DNA of 64,000 nucleotides from contig CM022672.1 of NCBI GenBank assembly GCA_012295275.1, positions 18,538,001 to 18,602,000 on the forward strand. The letters are read 5' to 3'. The notes beneath the pieces are model-generated. The model did no database searches. It was not told where the DNA came from and saw only the letters and a list, made by a program, of their open reading frames with translations. The first letter of the stretch is position 1. Each line of letters starts with the position of its first letter. The position numbers and the translations under genes were made by a program. The DNA is from Chrysomallon squamiferum. Taxonomy: Eukaryota > Animalia > Mollusca. This document shows positions 19,699-64,000 of this stretch, one piece after another.

Positions 19699-30233
<10,535 letters not shown>

Positions 30234-38128: not shown

Positions 38129-38301
38129 TTCTATTTTTATACTATGAGTATTATCTATATGGAGTTAGTTCCCTTATGTTATAGAAATGAACACTAAAAA
38201 AATGCGTAAAAATACGGCTTGGATTCAGCAATCTTATCTCGCGACTTTAACGTACGTTTTGGTGAGTGTCGCTCAATGAAATTAATATTTATTAACGTGT
38301 A

Positions 38302-39270
38302 ATGCAGAAACTGAATAGGAAACTAGGATTAACCACACTGAGTCATCCTCCGTCTGCTGGAAATCCCTGTTACTATGGAAATGATCAGAAGAACGTCAGC
38401 AGCTCCGGAAACATCCTTGTTGAAAAACAGCAGACGGCGAAACAAGATGGCCGTTATTTTAAAGACGAAAAAGACGAATCGCTGATCAACGACAACGTTG
38501 ACGATTTGACTTGCGCAGATGCGCTCGGATCAAGCAGTGTCGAAAAACAAGTGCACGCTTTGTACCCGAGATACTCGGAACACGGAGAGAGGCTGAGATC
38601 GTTCTCTAAAGGATGGCCGTTGCCGTTTCCTCACCTGACGCCCGAAAACATGGCCCGGGAAGGTTTCTTCTTCCTGGGCAACCTGGACCGCGTGCGCTGC
38701 TTCTGCTGCGGGCTGACGCTGAGGGAGTGGGAGGAAGACGACGACCCCTACGACGCGCACTGGCAGTGGTCAGAAAACTGTGCGTTCATCCATCAGCGAC
38801 GTCGTGAAAAGATCCGCCAACTGCAGCATCACGGCCACGGCGCGACTCCTTCCCAGCCTACGTCGTCATCTGAGGCGTCGTTATTGGCCGCTACAACTAC
38901 GTCGTCATCATCGTCGTCGACGACTGTCTACGATCCTTCCTCCATGTCGTATAAATCATCATCATCATCATCATCGGCAGTGGTTTCGGAATATACACCG
39001 TCGTCGTCAGCGTCAACGTCAACATCAACCTCGACGACTGCGGCAAATGTGGAGGAGGAAGAAGAAGAAGATGCTTGTGCTGCTGAGTCCGAGTCGCACG
39101 TGCAGAATACGAAAGTAGAAGCTGTTCTGGAAATGGGGTTTTCCATGGATGCAATACAGAGAGCGATTGAGAACCGAGAGAAGTCTGGATTACCCGAGTT
39201 CAACAACGCCGAGGAGCTTTTCAGGGCAATTCTCGAATTAGAAAATAATTCTGATTCCGAAGGCAAATAA
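38302..39270 (+). CDS. Inhibitor-of-apoptosis (IAP/BIRC)-like protein: single BIR domain, Ser/Thr-rich linker, C-terminal UBA, no RING
   Basis: Uninterrupted 322-aa ORF. BIR domain RLRSF..W...LTPENMAREGFFFLGNLDRVRCFCC...WEEDDDPYDAHWQWSENCAF has the Cx2Cx16Hx6C zinc ligands. The C-terminal VEAVLEMGFSMDAIQRAI...FNNAEELFRAIL resembles the cIAP/XIAP UBA (MGF loop). The start is uncertain because ATGCAG at 38302-38307 could instead be an acceptor. Confidence 0.9.
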   Translation: MQKLNRKLGLTTLSHPPSAGNPCYYGNDQKNVSSSGNILVEKQQTAKQDGRYFKDEKDESLINDNVDDLTCADALGSSSVEKQVHALYPRYSEHGERLRSFSKGWPLPFPHLTPENMAREGFFFLGNLDRVRCFCCGLTLREWEEDDDPYDAHWQWSENCAFIHQRRREKIRQLQHHGHGATPSQPTSSSEASLLAATTTSSSSSSTTVYDPSSMSYKSSSSSSSAVVSEYTPSSSASTSTSTSTTAANVEEEEEEDACAAESESHVQNTKVEAVLEMGFSMDAIQRAIENREKSGLPEFNNAEELFRAILELENNSDSEGK

Positions 39271-49803: not shown

Positions 49804-49822
49804 AACCAAGATGGCAGAGGAG
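49804..49822 (+). CDS. RLC 19-nt start-codon micro-exon
   Basis: Polypyrimidine tract, then acaacag|aaccaagATGGCAGAGGAG|gtaaat; phase 0, compatible with both exon-2 variants. Confidence 0.75.
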
Positions 49823-49982
49823 GTAAATTTTCTTTTTCTTTAATACGCATGCGTATTACATACCTATATTCACCGAGTAGTTTCATTTGTCACTAATGAA
49901 TCTTAATACAATTGCGATTCTGAGCAGTTTCTTGTCGAAAAACGCGTGTTGGACACCGATGTTATTATTATTATAATTATAA

Positions 49983-50022
<40 letters not shown>

Positions 50023-51346
50023 TATTTATTTATTTTTCACTAATTTATAATGTGTCTATGTAATTATGTAACTGAAACTTATCTTTTTACATCGTTTCCT
50101 AACGGGAATTCATTTTAAAGAGTACCTTCAGAGTATATTCCGGTAGTCTAAATATATTTTGTATACATTTCAGTATATGCAACGACATCACCATAGAAGC
50201 AGTTTAAAAAATGATGTCACTTTAAAACGAAACAAAACAAAACAAATTATTTACTATTTTGTAGTTGAAAGTAACCGCAATGATTACAGTTCATTGAAAC
50301 AGTTAATCGAATATATAAGCAAACATACCAGTCAATCCTTAATATACACTGTTCGATTTATTTAGTTTACCTTATTAAAAAAATAATAATAATAATTAAA
50401 AAAAAAAAATAATAATAATAATAATAATAAAAATCTTTAAAAAATTCTTACTGCACTGACAACTGTTATGATTCTTTATCTGTAAAATTTGGTTTCCTGT
50501 AACTGCGATTGCTTTGTTAATTTCTGTGGATTTTGTCAAATTAATGTATTTATTGACTGTTTAAAACACCATATTCGAAGAGCAATTTCACAACGCCGCT
50601 GAAATCCTCGAAGTTACAACCATATGTGATTCAGCAGTACAGCGATTCGTTATTTATCTGAGCCGGAAATGATTCGCTAAAGGCTTTTATCTCCGTCAGC
50701 AATGTTAGCCTGAAGGTTATGTTCGCTTATGGTAAACCACTGTTTTATCAAAACTTCAACGTGGTCCCGAAGATAGCAATCAACTAATACCTTTTGGCTG
50801 ACCTCGTTTTACTTATGTAATGGTAACATTGGGGAACAGTCAGCGCTATTATGTAATGCAGGCTACAGCTATATGTTTTCGTTGCAAAACTGGGATCAGT
50901 TATCTCCTAATAATGACGTATTGAGCAAAAACCTACTCTAGTGTCAATCAAACTGTAAAACGTATTTGAAGTTCTACCGAAAATCAGATTAAACTGCTAA
51001 CAAACGGTTCGAGTTATCTCAAAACTGAAAATGACATATACATGTATATTATTGGAAACTATGTTTTTAACTGCATGAAACTTCGTTCCCTTATGAAAAA
51101 TATATATTATATTTTGATTACATATATTTTTTTTTTACTTTTTAAATTTATTTATATCAGTTTCTTCATCCGTGTCCAGCTGATATGGATTTCTTATTTT
51201 CTTATCATCTTAATAAAAATAATAATTTATATGCTTATTATTAGTAGTATTATTATTATTATTATTATTATCTTGTTATTATTAAATTATTTTTATGATC
51301 TTGTTTAAAAAACAAATGTATTTTTATTATTATTATTTTTAAAAAA

Positions 51347-51381
<35 letters not shown>

Positions 51382-53076
51382 CACTACACATTTTGATACC
51401 TGCCCAAATATATTTTCATAATAATGAAGAAAAAATAAAACGTTAATAAAAATTAATGTCATATGTTATTAAAACAATGTGTTGATCAAAACATAATAAT
51501 GTTGATTTTCTTTATAATTATGTATGTATGTATGTAACTTATGTACGATGCACTTGAACAGGTATTTTTCAGTTAGACGACTTAGACAATGTGCCTCATA
51601 AAGTCTTAGACAGATTCGAGTGTGTTATTGTGTATTATAATAATAATTTAGAATAGAAATTACTACTGTGTTTGCGATTCTTTATATTTACCATAGAGAG
51701 ATTGGTAGCTTCTATTTGGTTGTTGTTTTGGTTGGTTCATTTTTTTTTCGTGTTTTGAGTTTTTATGTGTTATAATTGGCTTTTGTTACAGCTTTAATCA
51801 CATGTGTAGTTACCCTTGTAGGTAGCAGAAGTGTCGTCAGGGGTAGTTGCAGTGGACATGCGCATTGGTGTGTTGCTAGCCTCGTTCTCGAGTGTGCTGC
51901 TGATGGAGTAGACTTAGACTGGTTTGGATCCCCCCCGTCTCATATTAAAAATAAAACACACACACAAAATGACACCAGTTTCAGTTAATTTAAATTTATT
52001 TAATATAATTATTATTATTATTATTGTCATTATTACTGTTATTGGGTTGCGAAAATAAATTTCTATTTATTAATTCATTCTTTTTTACCTGTCTTTCAAA
52101 AGAATATATATATATATAGTATATCCGTCCATAAATAATTTTTCAAATTTAAATATTCAAACGTTTCCCTGACCCCCCCCAAAAAAAAAAAAAAAAAAAA
52201 AATGAAAATAAAATATACTTTAGATTAACCAATGAAATAAAAATAACGTTTTGGAGCAATAAGTTTTATTTATTTGTAAAAGAACAACAAATACCCACCA
52301 AAAGAAAAATACGAAAAAAAACAACAAAAAAAAACATTGAAGAATTAAAAATTAAATAAATAAACAAAGAAAGAAAGAAAGAAAAATCGAAATAAAACAA
52401 ATGCATCTGAAATCAAAAAATACAAAAGGGGTCCATCCAAAAATAATAAAGAAACATAACAGAAAAAAAAAAAAAAAAACTGGTGACATTTTCGAGCTCG
52501 AAAAAAGCTCAGTGAAGTAAAGTTGTTTTTTTTTTTTCCTTTGTCTTGTTAATTAGGAAGGCGGAAAGAAGCGGGGAGAGCGGCACGCCTCGAACGTTTT
52601 TGCTAAACTCTCCAAGAAAATGATGCAGGAGATGAAAGAGGTATGATTAGTGGTGCTCCACTGTAGCAGTGGGCAGTGTTTACTCACGGAATACATTTTG
52701 TACTTTTTCAGGCAATTAAAAAGAAGGAAGAACCAAAGCGCGCACAGCGCGCGACATCCAACGTTTTTGCGATGTTTCGCCAGGCTCAGGTTCAGGAATT
52801 CAAAGAGGTGTGCGATCTACCAATCAAAATGGAGAATTAAACTTTTTCTTATAGTTCCGTTTCCGGTGACAACTTTTCGTTTTGCTTGCGTCATTTCCGG
52901 TGATATCCGGGGTCTGCTAACACACTTCCAGCATGGGCGACATAATGCCTTTTGAAATAACAAAAATCTTCCTCATTGCATTTTTTTTTTTTTTCCATAA
53001 TATATTTATCTTAAGTCGGTGCATGAAAATAAAAATATACTAATTACAATCTTTATTTTTCTTCTGTTGCAACTGA

Positions 53077-53107
<31 letters not shown>

Positions 53108-55106
53108 GTTCAAAAATCAAGTAAACGAAAACAGAATTTACGATAACAGTAATTAAGATCTGTATAATTTTTTTATTTCTGACAGTTTTAATTTAAATAA
53201 TAAATATATAGCTTCAAAATATTCTGGGAATATTTTAATTTTTATTTCTGCTAGGACAACAATTGTATTGTTATTAAAGGGATTTTACTTTTTCAGATTT
53301 TAAAACATTTAATAAATGATAAAAAAGAAATGTAAATAAAATGACAATAAATAAATATAACTATATTTTAAAATTTAAACAATCTTTTAAAAAATATATA
53401 TATAAGATAAAATAAATGAATGAATGAATAAGTTTTAAATTATTTTGTTAATGCTCATTTAATATAAGCCAATAACGTTTTGGGAGAAACGTTTTTGCTC
53501 TTTAAATTTTGCTACCTTTCTTCACAATTTCACAGTTTCTATACCTTTGTTTCACTTGCCCACTAACCCAGACTTTGCACAGATCTATGTACAGCTAGAG
53601 TGGAAAAAAAAAAAAAAAAAAAAGGTTACATAAATTTAATTACGTTGAATATGGAGAGGAGGGTCCTTTTTTTCTTTGAGAATTAAAATAAAGATGTAAA
53701 TACCTTTATTACGAAAGATTCAGTTTTGTGATCTAATGTGTTCAGATATAGCAATAACTTTAAAAAAAAAAATAATAATAATAGAAGAAGCGTAAAATGA
53801 ATAACGACTAAAAGATAAATAGTACAAAGATTAATAACGATAATTTTAAATTCAAGAATATCGCATTTATCATAATCTATCTATACTGCGTTAAAATGAA
53901 TGTCCCAGTGCTGACAAAAAAGAAGAAAAAAAAAAAAAGCGTTGACCCTGTATATTGCTGGCAATGGATTGATGCAGCCTTTATTTCCAGGGTATTTTCA
54001 AGGTGAGGTAAATCTCCAGCTTATCAAACTTTAGTCTTATTTTGTATTGCAGCACTTGGCGCTTCATTGCCTTTTTAGCCAGAGAACTTTTAACACAGCC
54101 AGTTCAATGGGTCAGAAAACGATACACTCCATTTTCATTATGTAGGGAAAGATTATGATATATTGATATCTGTATTGGTTAGAGGATAGGGTAGTTTGAT
54201 ATAGCAAAAATATGCAAATATACAAGTAATGAAAGAAAGAAACTGATAAAGTATGTAAGTAATTAAAGCAGGTAAACGTTGATGCTGTCTGAGCTGTTAT
54301 ATCTAGCTTTGCATAGATGCTGTCATCTTTTTCTGTTCTGTTAAAATATTCTCTATTTTTTTTTTTTTTTTTTTTAATAAATTTTTCTTTTCACTTTTCA
54401 GTGAACATTGTCAAGCTCGATTAACATTCGTTCTCTTCAACATGATTTTGTTTTTAAATATTTTTTTATATATACTTAATGTCTTTGTTAAAAAAAAAAA
54501 AAAGACACGACAACACGATGAATACATACTTTATTACGTTATAATTTATTATTTTATTAATTTATTTTATTTTATTTTTCAAAAATCGTGTTTTGGAAGA
54601 ACTAATACAATACCGACCATTTGATATTTGGGGGATGGATTTATCTAGAAAGATTGGCTTGATAATAGATTTTACGTAATTCATTAGTATTTAGAAGACA
54701 ATCCCTTTTTATACTGTCTACCCCCAAAAACGCTCAAAAGGCTTTGATTTCATTCGCTTTTATATTCTGTTGGCATTCCTTGCTTCCTTGAATTTACCCA
54801 CATCAACATACTGATTAAAAAAAAATTGACATTTACCATGCATAGTGTCACAAGTTTGCCCATCCTTTCTATCCCTTGATAATTAAATGATCGGTAAATT
54901 TTTTATTATATAATCTGAAAAGCACTTTTGTTACGTTTGAATCTGATTTTGCATATTATATGGTAAATACGTTAAATAAATTTACATAAATACCATCATG
55001 TGTCGTAAGTAGACAGATACATATGCACGCAAACACACATATTCACACGCATACGTATAAAATTATGTATTTGTTCAGTGTGTGTGTGTGTGTGCGTGTA
55101 TGTATG

Positions 55107-55137
<31 letters not shown>

Positions 55138-55696
55138 TGTATTTTTTATAAAATGTTAAACTGATATCTTCACATAATTACTTTTGTATTATATATATAT
55201 ATATTTTTTAATATCTTTTAATATATTTTAATACATAAAATATATATAGCATATTAACTATTATATTAGATATAACTTGCTTATAAATTTATTTGTATGT
55301 TTAAATGTTTACTTTGTTAAATACATTTGTTATAACGAAAGTAATGTTTTTTGACATTCATTTACATTTAATATTTTATAACGATGACTATCAAACTTAT
55401 TTGGCTAAAAATTTAAACATTTCATTCTGTTATTGTGATATTTTTATTATTAATTTGTTTATATGTTTCATCATGATTGTTTTTATTATACTGAGAATTA
55501 TTCATGTTATAACTCTGAACACACCAAAGATACGTTTTATCATTTTACTTTTGGTTTATTTTCCTATAGGCATTCACTATGATTGATCAAAATCGTGATG
55601 GCATCATCGATATTGAAGATCTTAAAGACATGTACTCAAATCTTGGTATGTGACAGTCTCAGATATATGTATAATCTGAACAAAATTAATAATAAC

Positions 55697-55751
<55 letters not shown>

Positions 55752-56534
55752 GCAGTATGTATAAAAATATATACTGACCAACGATATAATTTTCGCTATT
55801 CGTTTAACATATCATCCTAATTTAGTTAATTTCACTTTAATTACAAACAAAATATATATTGCTGCACACGATTGGTTCATTGTACTCCTGTAAATATAAC
55901 ACACCATCTGATTGGTTGATTTTCAGGAAGGATTCCACCTGACGATGAGCTAAAGGAGATGTTGGCGGAAGCGCCTGGTCCACTGAACTTCACGATGTTT
56001 TTGAACTTGTTTGGTGAAAAATTGAGCGGTAAGTTTGTAGTAGAGTTTGAGGAATATTTTGTGTGCGTGCACCAGCTGGTATTTTTCTTTGATACGCAAA
56101 AATCACATAATTAATTACACGACATTCAATAACCACTAATATTTAAAACTTGTTGAAGTGCGGTCTCTTCTCTGTTGTTATGGTTTTAATCTTTATTGTT
56201 ATAGGTGTGATCTACATTTTTATTTTATATTTCTAATCTGTGTTCCTTTATTTCTTCCGGTCTGATTTTTGTTCTTGTGGCTATAGGCGAAAACGTAATT
56301 TTTTTTCTTTCTTTCTTTTTTTGTTTCTTTGGGGTTTTTTTTTTTTTTTTTGTTTGTTTTTTTTTATTTATTTTTTATTTATTTATTTTATTTTAATTAA
56401 AATATAAATTGATTTTTCTCCTTACTTGTAGGTACTGATCCAGAAGACACCATCAGAAATGCATTCGCCATGTTTGACGAAGCTGGAAAAGGCTACCTCC
56501 CAGAAGAATAGTAAATTTCATTTTAAACATAATG

Positions 56535-56572
<38 letters not shown>

Positions 56573-57143
56573 GTCAATGTTGATGATGATGATGATGATA
56601 TGATAACAAAGGCATAATAAGAGTTTGATAACATTTAAAATATATATATTGTCTTTTGAATTAATGCCAAATGCAGATTATCTGATTACCTATAACTTTT
56701 AATTACATTTAATTAGTTACTGAAAGTTTAATATTAATGTAGAAACTCTTGAATCAGGACATAATTATATTAATTTCCGAAAAGAGAAAAGAAAAGATTT
56801 TCATTAATGTAAGCTCTTGAAATTATAGTGATTTCCTTAGCATCATGTTTGACTTACTAATGTAAATAATTTCTGTTTCGTTTTTCAGCATCAAGGACTT
56901 GCTAACAAATATGGGTGATAACTTTACACAGGATGAAGTAAGTTAATATACAAGTTATCTCTATTCAAAAAGTATTTTCTAATGGATGATCTTATTACTA
57001 ATTATTATCTGAAATTTTACAGTTAGGTTTTTTTTTTTTTTTTTTAATTATGATACATGACACTGAAGCAGATGTACTTGAAAGTTAACTTTAGTAATAT
57101 ATAAATCTAACTGGTATTTGAATACCAAATTATTTTCATTTTT

Positions 57144-57176
<33 letters not shown>

Positions 57177-57367
57177 TTGTTGTTGTTGTATTAAACCATG
57201 TCCCTGAACTAAAGACTAGTCAATGGCAAGGATACACAATATGTCTCTGCTTTTTTTTTTTTATTATTATTTATTTTGTTATATTATATTATTATATTAT
57301 TATATTTTTTAATTATTATTTATATATGTTATATTATATTATTATAGCTCTATTATATTTCTATGAC

Positions 57368-57406
<39 letters not shown>

Positions 57407-57523
57407 TTGTGTTTCCAGCTTAGACAAACGTGGAAAGAGGCACCTATAGAAAAGGGACAGTTTGACTATAACGCCTTCGTCTCACTGCTTAAGGGTAAAC
57501 AGGCTGAAGAAGAGGTCGCATAA
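49811..57523 (+). CDS. Myosin II regulatory light chain (EF-hand); two isoforms of 168 and 172 aa
   Basis: Exons 49811-49822 (MAEE), 52557-52640 or 52712-52807, 55570-55645 ([26 protein letters not shown]), 55927-56028 (..[21 protein letters not shown]), 56432-56510 ([16 protein letters not shown]..), 56889-56937 ([16 protein letters not shown]) and 57419-57523 ([34 protein letters not shown]). All GT-AG and in phase. Confidence 0.95.
52557..52640 (+). CDS. RLC alternative exon 2a
   Basis: Acceptor aattag; encodes [28 protein letters not shown]; donor GTATGA; 84 nt, phase 0-0. Confidence 0.88.
52712..52807 (+). CDS. RLC alternative exon 2b (MLCK-site type)
   Basis: Acceptor tactttttcag; encodes [32 protein letters not shown]; donor GTGTGC; 96 nt, phase 0-0. 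Confidence 0.9.
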
Positions 57524-58831
57524 GACGGCATCCAGTCTAGGAGCCTACCCACACCACTCCCCTTTGAATCTCTCCAAACGCGTCGAGGTCTGGTTTCATC
57601 CTGGTCCCGTGAATCGCGTCGACTTGTCCACACCAGGCATCAACTACTGGACTGGAAGACTGCCATTCACGGATTGGGGCCTCAAAAGTGGAAGGAAAAA
57701 GTCAAAAAAGAAAAAAGAAAAAAAAAAAGGATATGTAAAAAAAAAAGAAGCCAAAATATATATATATATATAGATAGATAGATAGATAGTTGTAATGAGA
57801 AAGAAATAACAGTAATAAAGAAATATATATATTTTTTAGATGATAAAAAAAACCTAAGAAAAGCAACGTATTATTATTTACCGTTGGAAATGAGATTCAA
57901 AGGCGACTGGTGTGACTCTTTGTAGTTTCACACTCTTTCAATGAAAATTGAGACCTAGCGGGCCAAAGAGTGTATCGCATTCCATTTCTGCTTGGACAAA
58001 AAATTTTAACATTTGCTGCATACTCAGAGAATCAGAGCGCGAAGAAGCGGGTCCGACGAGCGCTCTAAAGTCACAGGTTGCTGTTGGTTTCATCGAAGTT
58101 TGGCTCTGGGCTCTGACTGGTATATTTTTGGAAAACACTAGCCTTCAGAAATACGTTACAGAGGTGTTGTTACGGCAACAGCTAGGACTAGGTTCCAGCG
58201 CTGTTCTGCAGCAACCCTCGCAAAATCTGTTGGCCCGGTAGGTTTCGATAATAATCTAAAAAAAAAAAAAAAAACCGGTTAGTACTGAAATCGGAACCGG
58301 TCCAATAATTTCCCCCCATCCTTCTATCCTTAATACACCACTATACGATTTGCAGTTTACTGGTTTCTACTACCATTATGACATATAGAATATTTATATT
58401 TTATTTATTTTTTAGATTTCACAGTCTATTATTAACCGCAATTCAGTTATCATTTTTTTTTTTTTTTTTTTTTTTTTTTAAGTGAAGGGGTTGGGAGCGG
58501 GTGGCATTTAATAATAATTTAAAAACGCAATACTATATATCCCAGGTCGTCTCAGTTATTTTAATTTTATTATTATTATTATTATTATTTTTTTTTTTTT
58601 TTTTTTTTTTTGTATGTGTATATTATTTGTTACGGTGTCTGACCTGTCGTCATATAAAACTCCAGTGAGGGTAATATATATATACAACATCGGCCGGGCG
58701 GTGTGTGTGCTTGACTGATTGTACAAGTAGAGCAAGTACTTGGTCTACTGGGGACATTGTGTCTCTTTGCATGTTTTCAACCTGATGTGGATTGTTTTTT
58801 TTTTTTTTTTTTTTCTGTGTCTTATTTATTT

Positions 58832-58959: not shown

Positions 58960-59664
58960 CGATTATGCATTTCGGGTCGCTGCGAAAATGATTTTTAAAC
59001 TTTCGAAACGAAATAATACGAAATCTAATTTATTTTGAGAATTCGAAACAAAACTCTTAATAATAGCCAGCTTCTAAAAATGTACTCGCGTCACCAGCAT
59101 TAAACTTTAAATGGAACAAAAAAAAAAAAAAAATAAACAACAACAAATAAACAACATAATGGGAGACAAGTGCAAACAAATGTGTATTTTCATTATGCTG
59201 ACTAGTACTGATAGCTGACTGTCAGACGCTAATTAGACACCTTATGTCTACGCAACTCCTAAAGAAAACGTGTGTGTGTGTGTGTGTGTGTGTTTACTTA
59301 ATAAGTTGCTTCACTGCCGGTTTGTTTATTTATTTATTTATTTTGTAATAAATCTCTCATGTCACTGGTTTATAGATTTAGTACGTTTTATAAATTGTTA
59401 TTATACCGCGTACACACTTATTAACTGGCAAAAGGCATCCGACATTTTTCTTCTTGAAAATTCTTGCATTTGATGATAATTATTTTATGTCGTTTAACTT
59501 CTGATGTGTACAAAAATTATAACCACAACCTTTTTTTTTTCAGAAAATATTTATTTATTCAAATAAGATATCAAAAAGATTATCTCTCAAAAACTTTTTT
59601 TAAAGTTTTTGTTCAACATAATTATAATTAATAATTTTAAAAATGTTCTGGTACAAATATTTCA

Positions 59665-59695
<31 letters not shown>

Positions 59696-59781
59696 TAATA
59701 ATAATAATAATCATAATCATAATCATAATCATAATCATAATAATGATGATGATGATGATGATAATTGCATCTGTGAAAGAC

Positions 59782-60266
59782 CTACGGCCTCTCCTTACAA
59801 CGAGATTTTTCGTGAGACCGTAGTCCCCATCTAGACGAGAACTTCTTCCCACAGACTCTGCAGTTCAGTTTCTCCGAGTGCAGACGCACGTGAATGGCCA
59901 GCTCGTGCTTGTCTGAAAATCGGCACGGACACAGATGACATCTAAAAAGTCTCCGCTGTGACGTCTGTAGTGTCTTTTCAGGTTCGGCAACAGATTTGTC
60001 TGGTAACTGCACAAATTACACCTGTGCAAGGCTCTGGGTCTGTATGCGACATCATAACTCTGCTGTTTGAACAAAACCGTCAGTTGTTGTTTACCCTCTA
60101 GTCCAACGGGATTGCTTTCCCGTTGGTGATACTCGAAGAACTCGCCAGGGTCACGTGGCTTTTGACAGTACGTCGCGTCCCTGCGCGGGGAGATGATACT
60201 ACTTCCGGTTGACTCTTCTTTGTCATTGAAAACATTTTCGTCACAAACGAAGGAAGCATTCCATTT
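59782..60266 (-). CDS. Terminal exon encoding a C2H2 zinc-finger cluster (3 fingers), with an apparent frameshift near 59950
   Basis: Acceptor (ttta)n-ttttag at 60268/60267. The phase-0 frame reads KWNASFVCDE...HRCNLCSYQTNLLPNLKRHYRRHSG. A shifted frame continues LFRCHLCPCRFSDKHELAIHVRLHSEKLNCRVCGKKFSSRWGLRSHEKSRCKERP*. Confidence 0.8.
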
Positions 60267-60521
60267 CTAAAATAAATAAATAAATAAATAATAGAAAGAA
60301 AAAAAAAAGTGTTTAAATAATAATTTTATTAATTGGTTAATTACGAATCTAAACATATTTTCATGTTAACTGCTTCACACAGATAAATGGCTGGGAAAGA
60401 TCTCGCAAACTGATGACATCACTGAAACGAGCAATATATCCAGATGACCCAGCTGTTTTTTCGTTAAATTCTCGCTTCCATATTATTTCATTTTGTGATA
60501 TATGCGTGTTTGTCTCTATAT

Positions 60522-60567
<46 letters not shown>

Positions 60568-61387
60568 TCTTCGCTTCAGCTTCTGAAATTTGTTTATCTC
60601 GTGGTCATGTAATGTTTATTCTAAACCAGCTTTAAAAACTTAAATAAATAAATGATGAAAACAAATATTTAAAATACAGATTTTGTAATCAGAGCTTCAC
60701 AAAATTTCCTTTATACCATTTCTAATTTCTGCTATTTTAAATGCCAAAGGTTAATAAGATTTGACGTTTTATTACACAATCAACTAAAGTTACATTATCA
60801 AATATATTTATCTGTATGAATGTACGTTTGATCATTTGTTGGTGAGTATGTGTATGAAAGAAAGCATATCGTAAAACATAAAGCTGTTTATGTAATAAAT
60901 AAAAATGCAATAAATCATAGTCTTATTAGATACGTAGAGTATAGAAAATAAATAAGTAAATAAATAATAATAAATGAAGCCTTTTTGTTAAAGAACAAAC
61001 AATTCTGGTGTATACAGTGAACCTTTAAGAGAAGATAATTATTACTGAAAACAAAACATTCTTCAGTGAATTTGCACAAAAAAGTGGGTGAAATGAAAAC
61101 AAAACCTTTAGCATAATACTTGTGAATATAATCTTCTTTTAAGATACTGTTTAAACTTTAAAAAAAAAAAAAAAAAAAAAACAACAACACACAAGCAAAA
61201 CATTAACAAAATGTAGTTTGCTACGGTTTGATCCTGTTATCTATAGCGTCCTAGCACCGTCTTTTATTCACAAAGATCAGTCAACTTGGGGAAAAAAACA
61301 TTTCTTTATTACCAGTAATTTCTTCTTTTTTCTTTCTTTTCTTTCATTATCATTATTTTATCTGTTCTATTCTATTCATTTCTGTTC

Positions 61388-61440
<53 letters not shown>

Positions 61441-61814
61441 AAAACAAATTATTTATTCATTATAAAAACAAATTATTTATTCATTATAAAAAAAAAATTT
61501 AACTTGTTTTTTTCTGATTATAAAATATTCAACGTTGGTGATGTTTCAAATAAAGATACTGTATTTATTTACTGACAGTAATAACAACAGTACTAACAGA
61601 AAACAAATCATAAACAATCACTAAATATAATAATTATTTTTTATTAACATTCAGGTTATAAAATTATAAAATAGAGATAAGCACAGTAATATAGATATTA
61701 CTATTATTAGTATAATAGATAAGCCATATATTTCAGCTACTTTTTTTTTTATAAATCTTGTTATTCAATATTAGACATGCACAAGTCTTGGCTGGCCTTT
61801 ACTTCATTCCATAA

Positions 61815-62303
61815 TTATTTTTGCAACGAACTCTTCGTAATTTCAATATCGTGTCGCAATCGACATCGACGTATGAAATTAATCGAAGCGTGGAAATCTG
61901 AAAAGCCGAACTTCTGAGCGATCTCTTTCGCTTTGGCACCGATGGCGCTCATGGTAACACACTCTCCATTTTCATTCGCTTTCTTATACCACGAATAGAG
62001 CGCCTCTTCCAGCGTCCCGTACACAGACGGTTTGCTGCATTTCTTGGACGCACTCTGGATGTTGGAATATGCCGTCATTACCTCACTTCTTTTATTAAGT
62101 ATTGAGATCAGCGTGCTGCGTGGTATGCCGTATTCCCTGGCTATTTCGGCTTTGGTCTTCTTGCCCAGGTCTGCGATTTCAATCAGAAGATATTTCGTTT
62201 CGAAGTCGAGCGTCTTGCGTTTGTTTGTCTTCCTCGGAGTTTTCTTTGAACTGACGTTTCGGGGTTCGGAACGATAACCGGGCTGGGGTGCATTGCTGGT
62301 TTC
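61815..62303 (-). CDS. Terminal exon encoding a CENP-B/pogo-type bipartite DNA-binding domain (psq-like HTH + Tc5/CENP-B HTH), no DDE domain
   Basis: Acceptor ttaattgaacag at 62305/62304. The phase-0 open frame reads ETSNAPQ...KRKTLDFETKYLLIEIADLGKKTKAEIAREYGIPRSTLISILNK...LEEALYSWYKKANENGECVTMSAIGAKAKEIAQKFGFSDFHASINFIRRCRLRHDI...QK*. Confidence 0.88.
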   Translation of the reverse strand, partial: ETSNAPQPGYRSEPRNVSSKKTPRKTNKRKTLDFETKYLLIEIADLGKKTKAEIAREYGIPRSTLISILNKRSEVMTAYSNIQSASKKCSKPSVYGTLEEALYSWYKKANENGECVTMSAIGAKAKEIAQKFGFSDFHASINFIRRCRLRHDIEITKSSLQK

Positions 62304-62420
62304 CTGTTCAATTAAAAACAGTTTATTTTTTATTCCTCGGAAGAACTCAAGATGAAAGTTTTTGTTCGGTACAGATCAATTGAAATAATTTCTGTTGTTT
62401 CTGTTACTTAAGATATGTAA

Positions 62421-62456
<36 letters not shown>

Positions 62457-62547
62457 TAAAAACAAATTCAATGTTTTAGAAGCAGATAACAAAAGGAATG
62501 CAAGCATACAAAATGTATATCAAGTAAAGTATGTACAGCAACTAAAC

Positions 62548-62582
<35 letters not shown>

Positions 62583-62984
62583 TAATAATAGTAATAATAA
62601 TAATATGTTAAATAGGAAACAATTATGTGCATATTAACAATCCACATGCTTTTAAATAACAACAACAACAGCAACAACAACAATAATAATAATAGTGTTA
62701 CACAGGAAACAATTATGTGTATATTAAAAATCCACATCTTTTAAAAAACAATAACAACAACAATAATAATAATAATAGTAACTGAAGAATAATAATGATG
62801 ATGATTAAATAATAAAAAATAACATACTAAAAGTCCAGGAAATTTATCATGTGAATAAGTTGTTCTAGTTATTTCTGGTTTTAAAACATGATCTCATTCA
62901 TCAGTTTAAAAATAAATGTGGGAAAATAAATTTTGAACCTATGTTGGATACAATTTGTTATTTAGATTCTTTTGAAAGTAAGAT

Positions 62985-63016
<32 letters not shown>

Positions 63017-63778
63017 GCATACATTAATTAATTTCCTAAACTCAACATATGTTATAATAAACTGATTAAAATATAAACTAGTATTTGACAAATGTACCTA
63101 AATAATCTGTGTTTTCTCAAAGTTTAAAATAGAGCATAATATCTTAATTTGACAGTACAATGTATATGATTCTGTTCAAATTACAGTTATCAAGCATTCT
63201 ACCTGAACTGAAAAAATAACTAAAATGACTAATTTTGGTGCATTACGATACAGAACGAGGAAGCAAAACAAACAAGTGATCACAAGAATTAGCACTCGAA
63301 ATTAAAGCACAAGATTTTGTTATGTTGTGTAAGTGGGTTTGAATGCTGGGTAAGAGTTTTCCCAGTGGGCTTGAAGTAAGCACTTTCTGTATTAGACTCC
63401 ACTGTTTATTTCCTATTTCAGATGGAGTTAAATATGACAAATTTTAATCAATGGTTATATAGTGTCACACACACAGCTACCATACAGACAATAATACTAT
63501 TATTAACAGCTGAAATACACAGGCTCCATGCAATATGGTGTGAACTTTTATATGTATCTTCCTAAAGGTTGGAACAACAATAACAACAACCAGGATGATG
63601 ATGATATCTGTTCCAGACAACATCACAGGAAGCTTTATCAAAAATACCACAAATGTAAGTTTGTCAAATATAATTAATTTAAAATGATAATTTTTCTTCC
63701 CGTTTTTAGTTTAAAAAAAAAAAAAAAAAAAAGGAAAAAACATAGGAAGGAAATGAAAGGACTGATCCAGATACTGAC

Positions 63779-64000
63779 CTATTTTTTCTTTACTAACAGG
63801 ATGCCATGTCGTGCTTTGAACTTGTTAATGTATCCTATGCTGGGATGAAAGTCTTTATGTCCCAGTTCTTGTGCTAACTCACGGGCTTTGGTCACCATCA
63901 TCTGACCAGTTATATACAGCCCATGTCTGACTGCCTCGCAGTACCAGCTGTACAGTTTGTCCTCTAGATGCGAATACTGTGATTTGCACAGGCGCTGACG
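63779..64000 (-). CDS. Second CENP-B/Tc5-type HTH terminal exon (partial; 5' part lies beyond the window)
   Basis: Open frame from the window edge: RQRLCKSQYSHLEDKLYSWYCEAVRHGLYITGQMMVTKARELAQELGHKDFHPSIGYINKFKARHGILLVKKK*. Paralogous to 61815-62303. Not in the ORF track. Confidence 0.88.
   Translation of the reverse strand, partial: RQRLCKSQYSHLEDKLYSWYCEAVRHGLYITGQMMVTKARELAQELGHKDFHPSIGYINKFKARHGILLVKKK

Follow-up and report, generated by a model that had tools for sequence, protein, structure and literature searches.

A probable array of alternative DNA-binding last exons behind a shared, BTB-free head in the gastropod Chrysomallon squamiferum

In flies, transcripts of the lola and mod(mdg4) loci begin with common 5′ exons and finish with one of several 3′ exons, each coding for a different DNA-binding end; lola has 20 isoforms, 17 of them with different C2H2 ends, and mod(mdg4) at least 30, mostly FLYWCH (PMC11426971, PMC6237743). 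The joining of one of 20–31 3′ exons proceeds by trans-splicing from separate promoters, and partly from the opposite strand (PMC6237743, PMC11426971, PMC13490949, PMC4387717, PMC12692577), and the TTK motif is reported as absent from Mollusca (PMC11426971). Vertebrates offer a second precedent: a transposase DNA-binding exon is spliced to a host head in KRABINER, SETMAR and CSB-PGBD3, and such fusions tend to replace the parental transcript with age (bioRxiv 10.1101/2020.05.07.082677). Here we describe a locus in 64,000 nucleotides of Chrysomallon squamiferum DNA (assembly GCA_012295275.1, contig CM022672.1, positions 18,538,001 to 18,602,000; the window hereafter), where three blocks are probably alternative last exons of one gene, each supplying a different DNA-binding tail to a shared head.

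The minus strand between 59.8 and 64 kb carries three coding islands, B1, B2 and B3 (Table 1), surrounded by AT-rich and microsatellite-rich DNA. An earlier sequence-only reading, made without database searches, had placed three minus-strand blocks with DNA-binding modules here; its coordinates hold, and Pfam agrees on the modules. B1, whose acceptor lies beyond the window edge, matches the helix-turn-helix (HTH) family HTH_Tnp_Tc5 (E-value 1.7e-14), and B2 matches both CENP-B_N (E-value 8.8e-8) and HTH_Tnp_Tc5 (E-value 3.2e-10). DNA binding by these modules, as by the C2H2 fingers of B3, is predicted from family membership. In B1 and B2 the stop codon immediately follows the second HTH, and neither has a DDE_1 Pfam match that would mark a DDE catalytic domain. 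The frames of B2 and B3 begin in phase 0 at an AG, with no methionine in frame ahead of their first DNA-binding module, again as first described. The AATAAA hexamers downstream of the blocks, once offered as support, have no weight as evidence, because one lies within 400 nucleotides at 851 of 1272 sampled positions (67%).

Five public runs cover the region as contigs: four recorded as RNA, all from one study (runs X1–X4), and one that is DNA-like (run X5). RNA contigs lie on B2 in runs X1, X2 and X3, and on B3 in all four RNA runs. At the B2 acceptor (62303), contigs in two of these three runs (X2 and X3) depart from the genome with identical foreign letters; the contig of run X1 stops short of the acceptor, and DNA-like run X5 continues from B2 into the intron without a break. 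On the minus strand, the reading frame stays open across the junction, in phase 0 (...SLASYHSKQ/ETSN). The foreign letters are absent from the 64-kb window and had no matches in metagenome contigs. The exon spliced to B2, in phase 0, is coding and lies beyond the window.

At B3, the contig of run X2 extends 518 letters past 60262 and that of run X4 extends 21, neither aligning to the intron; B3 is likely spliced to an outside exon at or near 60266. Of the RNA junctions that the sequence-only reading had proposed to seek at both acceptors, the one at 62303 was found, in phase 0; near 60266, contigs leave the genome, with the upstream letters not seen. Among 514 minus-strand AG sites preceded by at least 11 pyrimidines in 20 nucleotides, 60266 alone opens a phase-0 frame of at least 100 residues at a GC content of at least 42%; the B2 acceptor falls below that pyrimidine filter, yet is the one confirmed by RNA.

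Table 1. Features of the minus-strand array, with positions in the window
Feature	Position	Strand	Description
B1	63779..64000+	-	3′ part of a probable alternative last exon: second HTH of a CENP-B-type pair, then TAG
B2 acceptor	62304..62330	-	Weak pyrimidine tract, ...TGAACAG/GAA; used in RNA, phase 0
B2	61815..62303	-	Probable alternative last exon, complete, 162 residues: linker, CENP-B_N, HTH_Tnp_Tc5, stop
B3 acceptor	60267..60310	-	T-rich tract, ...TTTTAG/AAA
Unspliced RNA contig	60215..60415	-	Run X3 record 4, depth 2.6, one contig of one run; crosses the B3 acceptor into the intron
B3	59782..60266	-	Probable alternative last exon: linker of ~80 residues, three C2H2 fingers (Pfam), TAG
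Base missing from the assembly but present in RNA	59943..59944	-	Extra base in the contigs of runs X1 and X3, the sole two covering the site

Run in full with B2 as the query, HMMER returned 1364 matches at an E-value of 0.001. The most identical among the 150 matches listed, P0006 (46%), was matched at its C-terminus (residues 337–471 of 475) and is isoform X4 of LOC121382984 from Gigantopelta aegis. Word-based homologue searches among longer proteins yielded nothing for B2 (252 candidates) or for the 5′ part of B3 (22 candidates). Residues 1–312 of P0006, used as a query, returned 25 proteins, four of which are isoforms X2–X5 of the same locus at 100%; isoform X1 was found through the cluster of isoform X5. 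All five isoforms (RefSeq accessions XP_041368628-633) share an identical stretch of 312 residues ending in DNKQ and diverge right after Q312, into tails that Pfam assigns to BEN (isoform X1), three C2H2 fingers (X2), CENP-B_N plus a Tc5 HTH (X3), a Tc5 HTH (X4) and Psq (X5). Because their first tail residues (A, M, E, E and V) differ in the first codon base, the G. aegis junction is in phase 0. Five isoforms is a lower bound from a search of proteins of 261–832 residues.

The three blocks and the G. aegis tails are reciprocal best matches: B1 with isoform X3 (46% identity, vs. 40% to X4), B2 with isoform X4 (45% to its 163-residue tail, vs. 35% to X3) and B3 with isoform X2 (74% over fingers 2–3 and 41% over the linker end and finger 1). 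The frame, length and stop position of B2 are retained in G. aegis. On these sequence matches, LOC121382984 is likely the orthologue of the C. squamiferum locus. The exon spliced to B2 ends in HSKQ, where the G. aegis shared part ends in DNKQ; in an in-register alignment to the C-terminal end of that shared part, the junction Q excluded, the RNA peptide 5′ of B2 scores 12, which is reached by 3 of 303 head windows and by 0.47% of 31,595 background windows. We infer that this exon 5′ of B2 and the shared exon of G. aegis are orthologues. By the same orthology, a single shared exon is likely spliced to all three blocks, and B1 and B3 would use it as B2 does. By tblastn, the window holds no match for the G. 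aegis head, the BEN tail of isoform X1 or the Psq tail of isoform X5; the head therefore does not sit between the blocks, and the BEN and Psq tails of C. squamiferum presumably lie beyond 64 kb. The proposal of alternative last exons that share an N-terminus encoded beyond 64 kb is supported on three sides: by the B2 junction, by the RNA that leaves the genome near the B3 acceptor, and by the five tails on one head in G. aegis.

B3 is 485 nucleotides long and frameshifted as assembled: the frame from its acceptor ends at 59865, after one finger. The sequence-only reading, which took B3 for a complete block, had missed this break. In RNA, the extra base (Table 1) restores a single frame that runs through the three fingers and stops at 59782. 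The counterpart tail in G. aegis (isoform X2) is continuous at this site. The missing base is either an assembly slip or a private null allele. Eight of the 12 differences between the runs and the window in B3 are silent and the four replacements all fall in the linker, an excess of silent changes with a rough binomial p of 0.003 against 75% replacement, which is not a ratio of replacement to silent rates (dN/dS).

We give a probability of roughly 0.75 to the reading of the blocks as alternative last exons of a single gene whose tails are chosen in cis; of the shared-head architecture itself, cis and trans versions together, we are highly confident. The gene likely encodes a set of transcription factors, each mRNA carrying one common head and one DNA-binding tail. 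A shared donor would pick one acceptor by ordinary cis choice, and the message would be cleaved and polyadenylated behind the chosen last exon. The conserved head of ~75 residues would serve as a protein-interaction module and residues ~78–312 as a disordered linker, and the tail would determine the DNA target. The two HTH tails probably go back to the DNA-binding region of a captured pogo/Tigger-type transposase, which lost its catalytic part and probably duplicated within the array before the split from the G. aegis lineage. In a quick tree of 49 HTH rows (the four snail tails and the 45 best of 149 matches spanning at least 110 query residues), the snail tails group together with a Shimodaira–Hasegawa-like approximate likelihood-ratio (SH-aLRT) value of 89, apart from the 45 other rows and without a supported sister, and B1 is sister to isoform X3 (80).

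Several observations weigh against a single gene with cis-chosen tails. All the RNA data are low-depth contigs from a single study; they bear on B2 and B3 and none on B1, and the exon 5′ of B3 was not seen in C. squamiferum. The long upstream pieces (466 letters in run X3 and 518 in run X2) stand on unbranched contigs, where branching would be expected of a shared exon with good coverage; the low depth may account for this, but the contigs then give no support either. The in-register peptide match is weak by itself, though at the predicted place. In the quick tree, B2 is basal on a long branch, not paired with isoform X4, and no snail branch reaches 95. Five of six differences in B2 are replacements and one is silent, small counts that carry no constraint signal within the species. 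Furthermore, the G. aegis isoforms are automatic RefSeq models, for which read support was not seen.

The same architecture might instead have its tails joined largely in trans, from precursors with promoters inside the array, which we regard as unlikely but worth keeping in view. Fly loci of the same design trans-splice (PMC6237743), and the unspliced RNA contig that runs through the B3 acceptor ends at 60415, between TCAGT motifs at 60425 and 60413, a weak hint of a start inside the array near 60415–60425. However, TCAGT occurs 75 times on the minus strand of the window, and contigs cannot reveal transcript starts; the contig may be pre-mRNA, DNA carry-over or a separately started transcript, and the first two explain it equally well. 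Moreover, all three tails lie on one strand and closely spaced, in an array that is small, with five tails annotated in G. aegis.

Separate paralogous genes, in which each tail has its own copy of the head exon, as appears to be the case for abalone genes that join the head to DUF3504, are improbable. Head duplication does occur in the family, since abalone proteins P0179 and P0185 differ within the head under one locus name, and the letters 5′ of B3 were not seen in RNA contigs. Yet there is no head sequence in the 1.5–2 kb gaps between the blocks or in the rest of the window, so that such genes would need to be interleaved, and the five G. aegis isoforms are letter-identical across 312 residues. 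With no head between the blocks and with conserved tails, both this arrangement and transposon debris fit poorly. The latter, in which B1 and B2 would be decayed pogo/Tigger pieces caught by stray splicing and B3 a broken pseudo-exon, could draw on the frameshift of B3 in the assembly, the five residue-changing differences among six in B2 and the transposase-type HTH pair, but it is scarcely credible and largely refuted by the G. aegis orthologue: B1 and B2 have no DDE domain, the 25 longest of 266 inverted-repeat pairs in 59000–64000, the ones inspected, have microsatellite-type arms, B3 is intact in RNA, and the tails are kept in G. aegis at 45–74% identity with near-equal length and stop position.

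No Pfam family, BTB included, matches residues 1–312 of the G. aegis head at E-values up to 0.5; the BTB or zinc-finger constant domain earlier considered possible did not appear. Against solved structures, the same 312 residues had no sequence match below an E-value of 1.3. An AlphaFold2 model of the head from a 10-sequence alignment reached a predicted local distance difference test score (pLDDT) of 60 and a predicted template-modelling score (pTM) of 0.42, and Foldseek found no PDB matches to this poor model at an E-value of 0.001. A homodimer prediction scored 0.02, which is evidence for neither side. The head may be a protein-interaction module, by its position and by analogy with BTB. 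Its first ~75 residues are 45–60% identical in 19 abalone proteins, one G. aegis paralogue and one unnamed protein (P0173–P0193); 20 of these 21 terminate in DUF3504, and P0175 joins the head to another tail with no Pfam match. P0179 and P0185 share one locus name, yet the heads themselves differ. Within a species the matches have the same record length, which suggests that the genes for these head-plus-DUF3504 proteins are clustered in tandem. Domestication of Crypton/DUF3504 elements has reportedly been treated in earlier work.

Structure neighbours of the head region in the Atlas include four all-mollusc clusters of 51–101 members, below the bar for family naming, two of which take their names from zinc-finger protein isoforms, X25 and X9. 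An Atlas feature search with the head gave no usable match, and a head alignment run against metagenome contigs gave 204 pattern matches, none confirmed, and no locus. Isoform X3 of Haliotis rufescens LOC124129002 (P0087) was rejected as a head relative, its front being unrelated (hhalign probability 0.2). P0087 carries a CENP-B HTH pair at its end, on that different front, and comes from a second multi-isoform gastropod locus, which is possibly another variable-tail gene.

A GC-richer block at 57900–58255 on the minus strand was considered as a fourth tail and rejected: its acceptor at 58255 opens just a 36-residue phase-0 frame, and none of the three frames has a Pfam match. The acceptor is strong and T-rich, and the block, which adjoins the 3′ end of a light-chain gene, could be non-coding or a decayed distal exon. 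That gene, at 49811–57523 on the plus strand, we take by sequence likeness to encode a myosin regulatory light chain (RLC); the one piece of it that was scanned had no Pfam match. It has two tandem versions of exon 2, near 52557–52640 and from ~52712, which are likely mutually exclusive. In scallop, muscle-type RLC isoforms arise by alternative splicing. Elsewhere on the plus strand, a multi-exon gene for a G-protein alpha subunit lies at 23647–30233, with three pieces matching PF00503, and a long open frame at 38296–39270 holds one BIR domain (E-value 7.5e-22), in a gene of inhibitor-of-apoptosis type.

Full-text literature searches, with subscription papers mostly outside their scope, found no title or abstract start describing such a locus or head in molluscs, and none on LOC121382984 itself. 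The isoform set is already in RefSeq under names unrelated to one another ('uncharacterized', 'Ken-like' and 'FLO11-like'). The locus is well supported, conserved in two species and unusual in mixing four DNA-binding classes, in what is a small array. Variable-tail transcription factors have been treated as an arthropod, BTB-linked speciality; a BTB-free gastropod locus with four tail classes would show that the design arose again from other parts, and it draws attention to a family of mollusc regulators whose head domain has no name. It also offers a compact case for asking whether trans-splicing accompanies such arrays generally or large ones alone, and whether they are fed by the capture of transposases. 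One practical consequence is that most of these DNA-binding domains escape gene counts restricted to a single isoform for each locus. More speculatively, molluscs, and perhaps spiralians widely, might have their own counterpart of TTK-type BTB proteins: loci with self-associating heads that collect swappable DNA-binding last exons, several captured from transposons (the pogo-type HTH pair and Crypton-type DUF3504), with some arrays of at least 25 isoforms and with trans-splicing. We think this rather doubtful as a whole; if true, the heads of different isoforms would mix, giving combinatorial DNA recognition.

Set beside the described systems, the locus shares with host-transposase fusion genes a transposase-type domain on its own exon (B2), spliced onto an outside exon. 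Unlike the vertebrate fusions, it has kept two HTH tails in both species, alongside others of the C2H2, BEN and Psq classes, and unlike a pogo/Tigger transposon, B1 and B2 have no DDE domain after the HTH pair. The head-plus-DUF3504 proteins of abalone and G. aegis (QRICH1/KIAA1958-like) have the same ~75-residue head, but their heads differ mutually, suggesting separate or whole-open-reading-frame copies rather than a single shared head exon. With lola and mod(mdg4) it has in common a shared 5′ part with alternative 3′ terminal exons, seen in the G. aegis isoforms and in the B2 RNA junction, and variable exons that encode different DNA-binding domains, by Pfam on the blocks and on the G. aegis tails. 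It differs from them in having no BTB domain in the shared part (by Pfam on the G. aegis head, the window itself being without one), in having five annotated tails in G. aegis, not 20 or more isoforms, in the spread of these tails over four structural classes (BEN, C2H2, Psq and the CENP-B HTH pair), and in having all tails seen so far (three of three blocks) on one strand, the rest of the array lying outside the window. The likeness to lola and mod(mdg4) first proposed for these blocks thus stands for the design and falls for the family, and we conclude that the locus is a variant of that design which arose by convergence and does without BTB.

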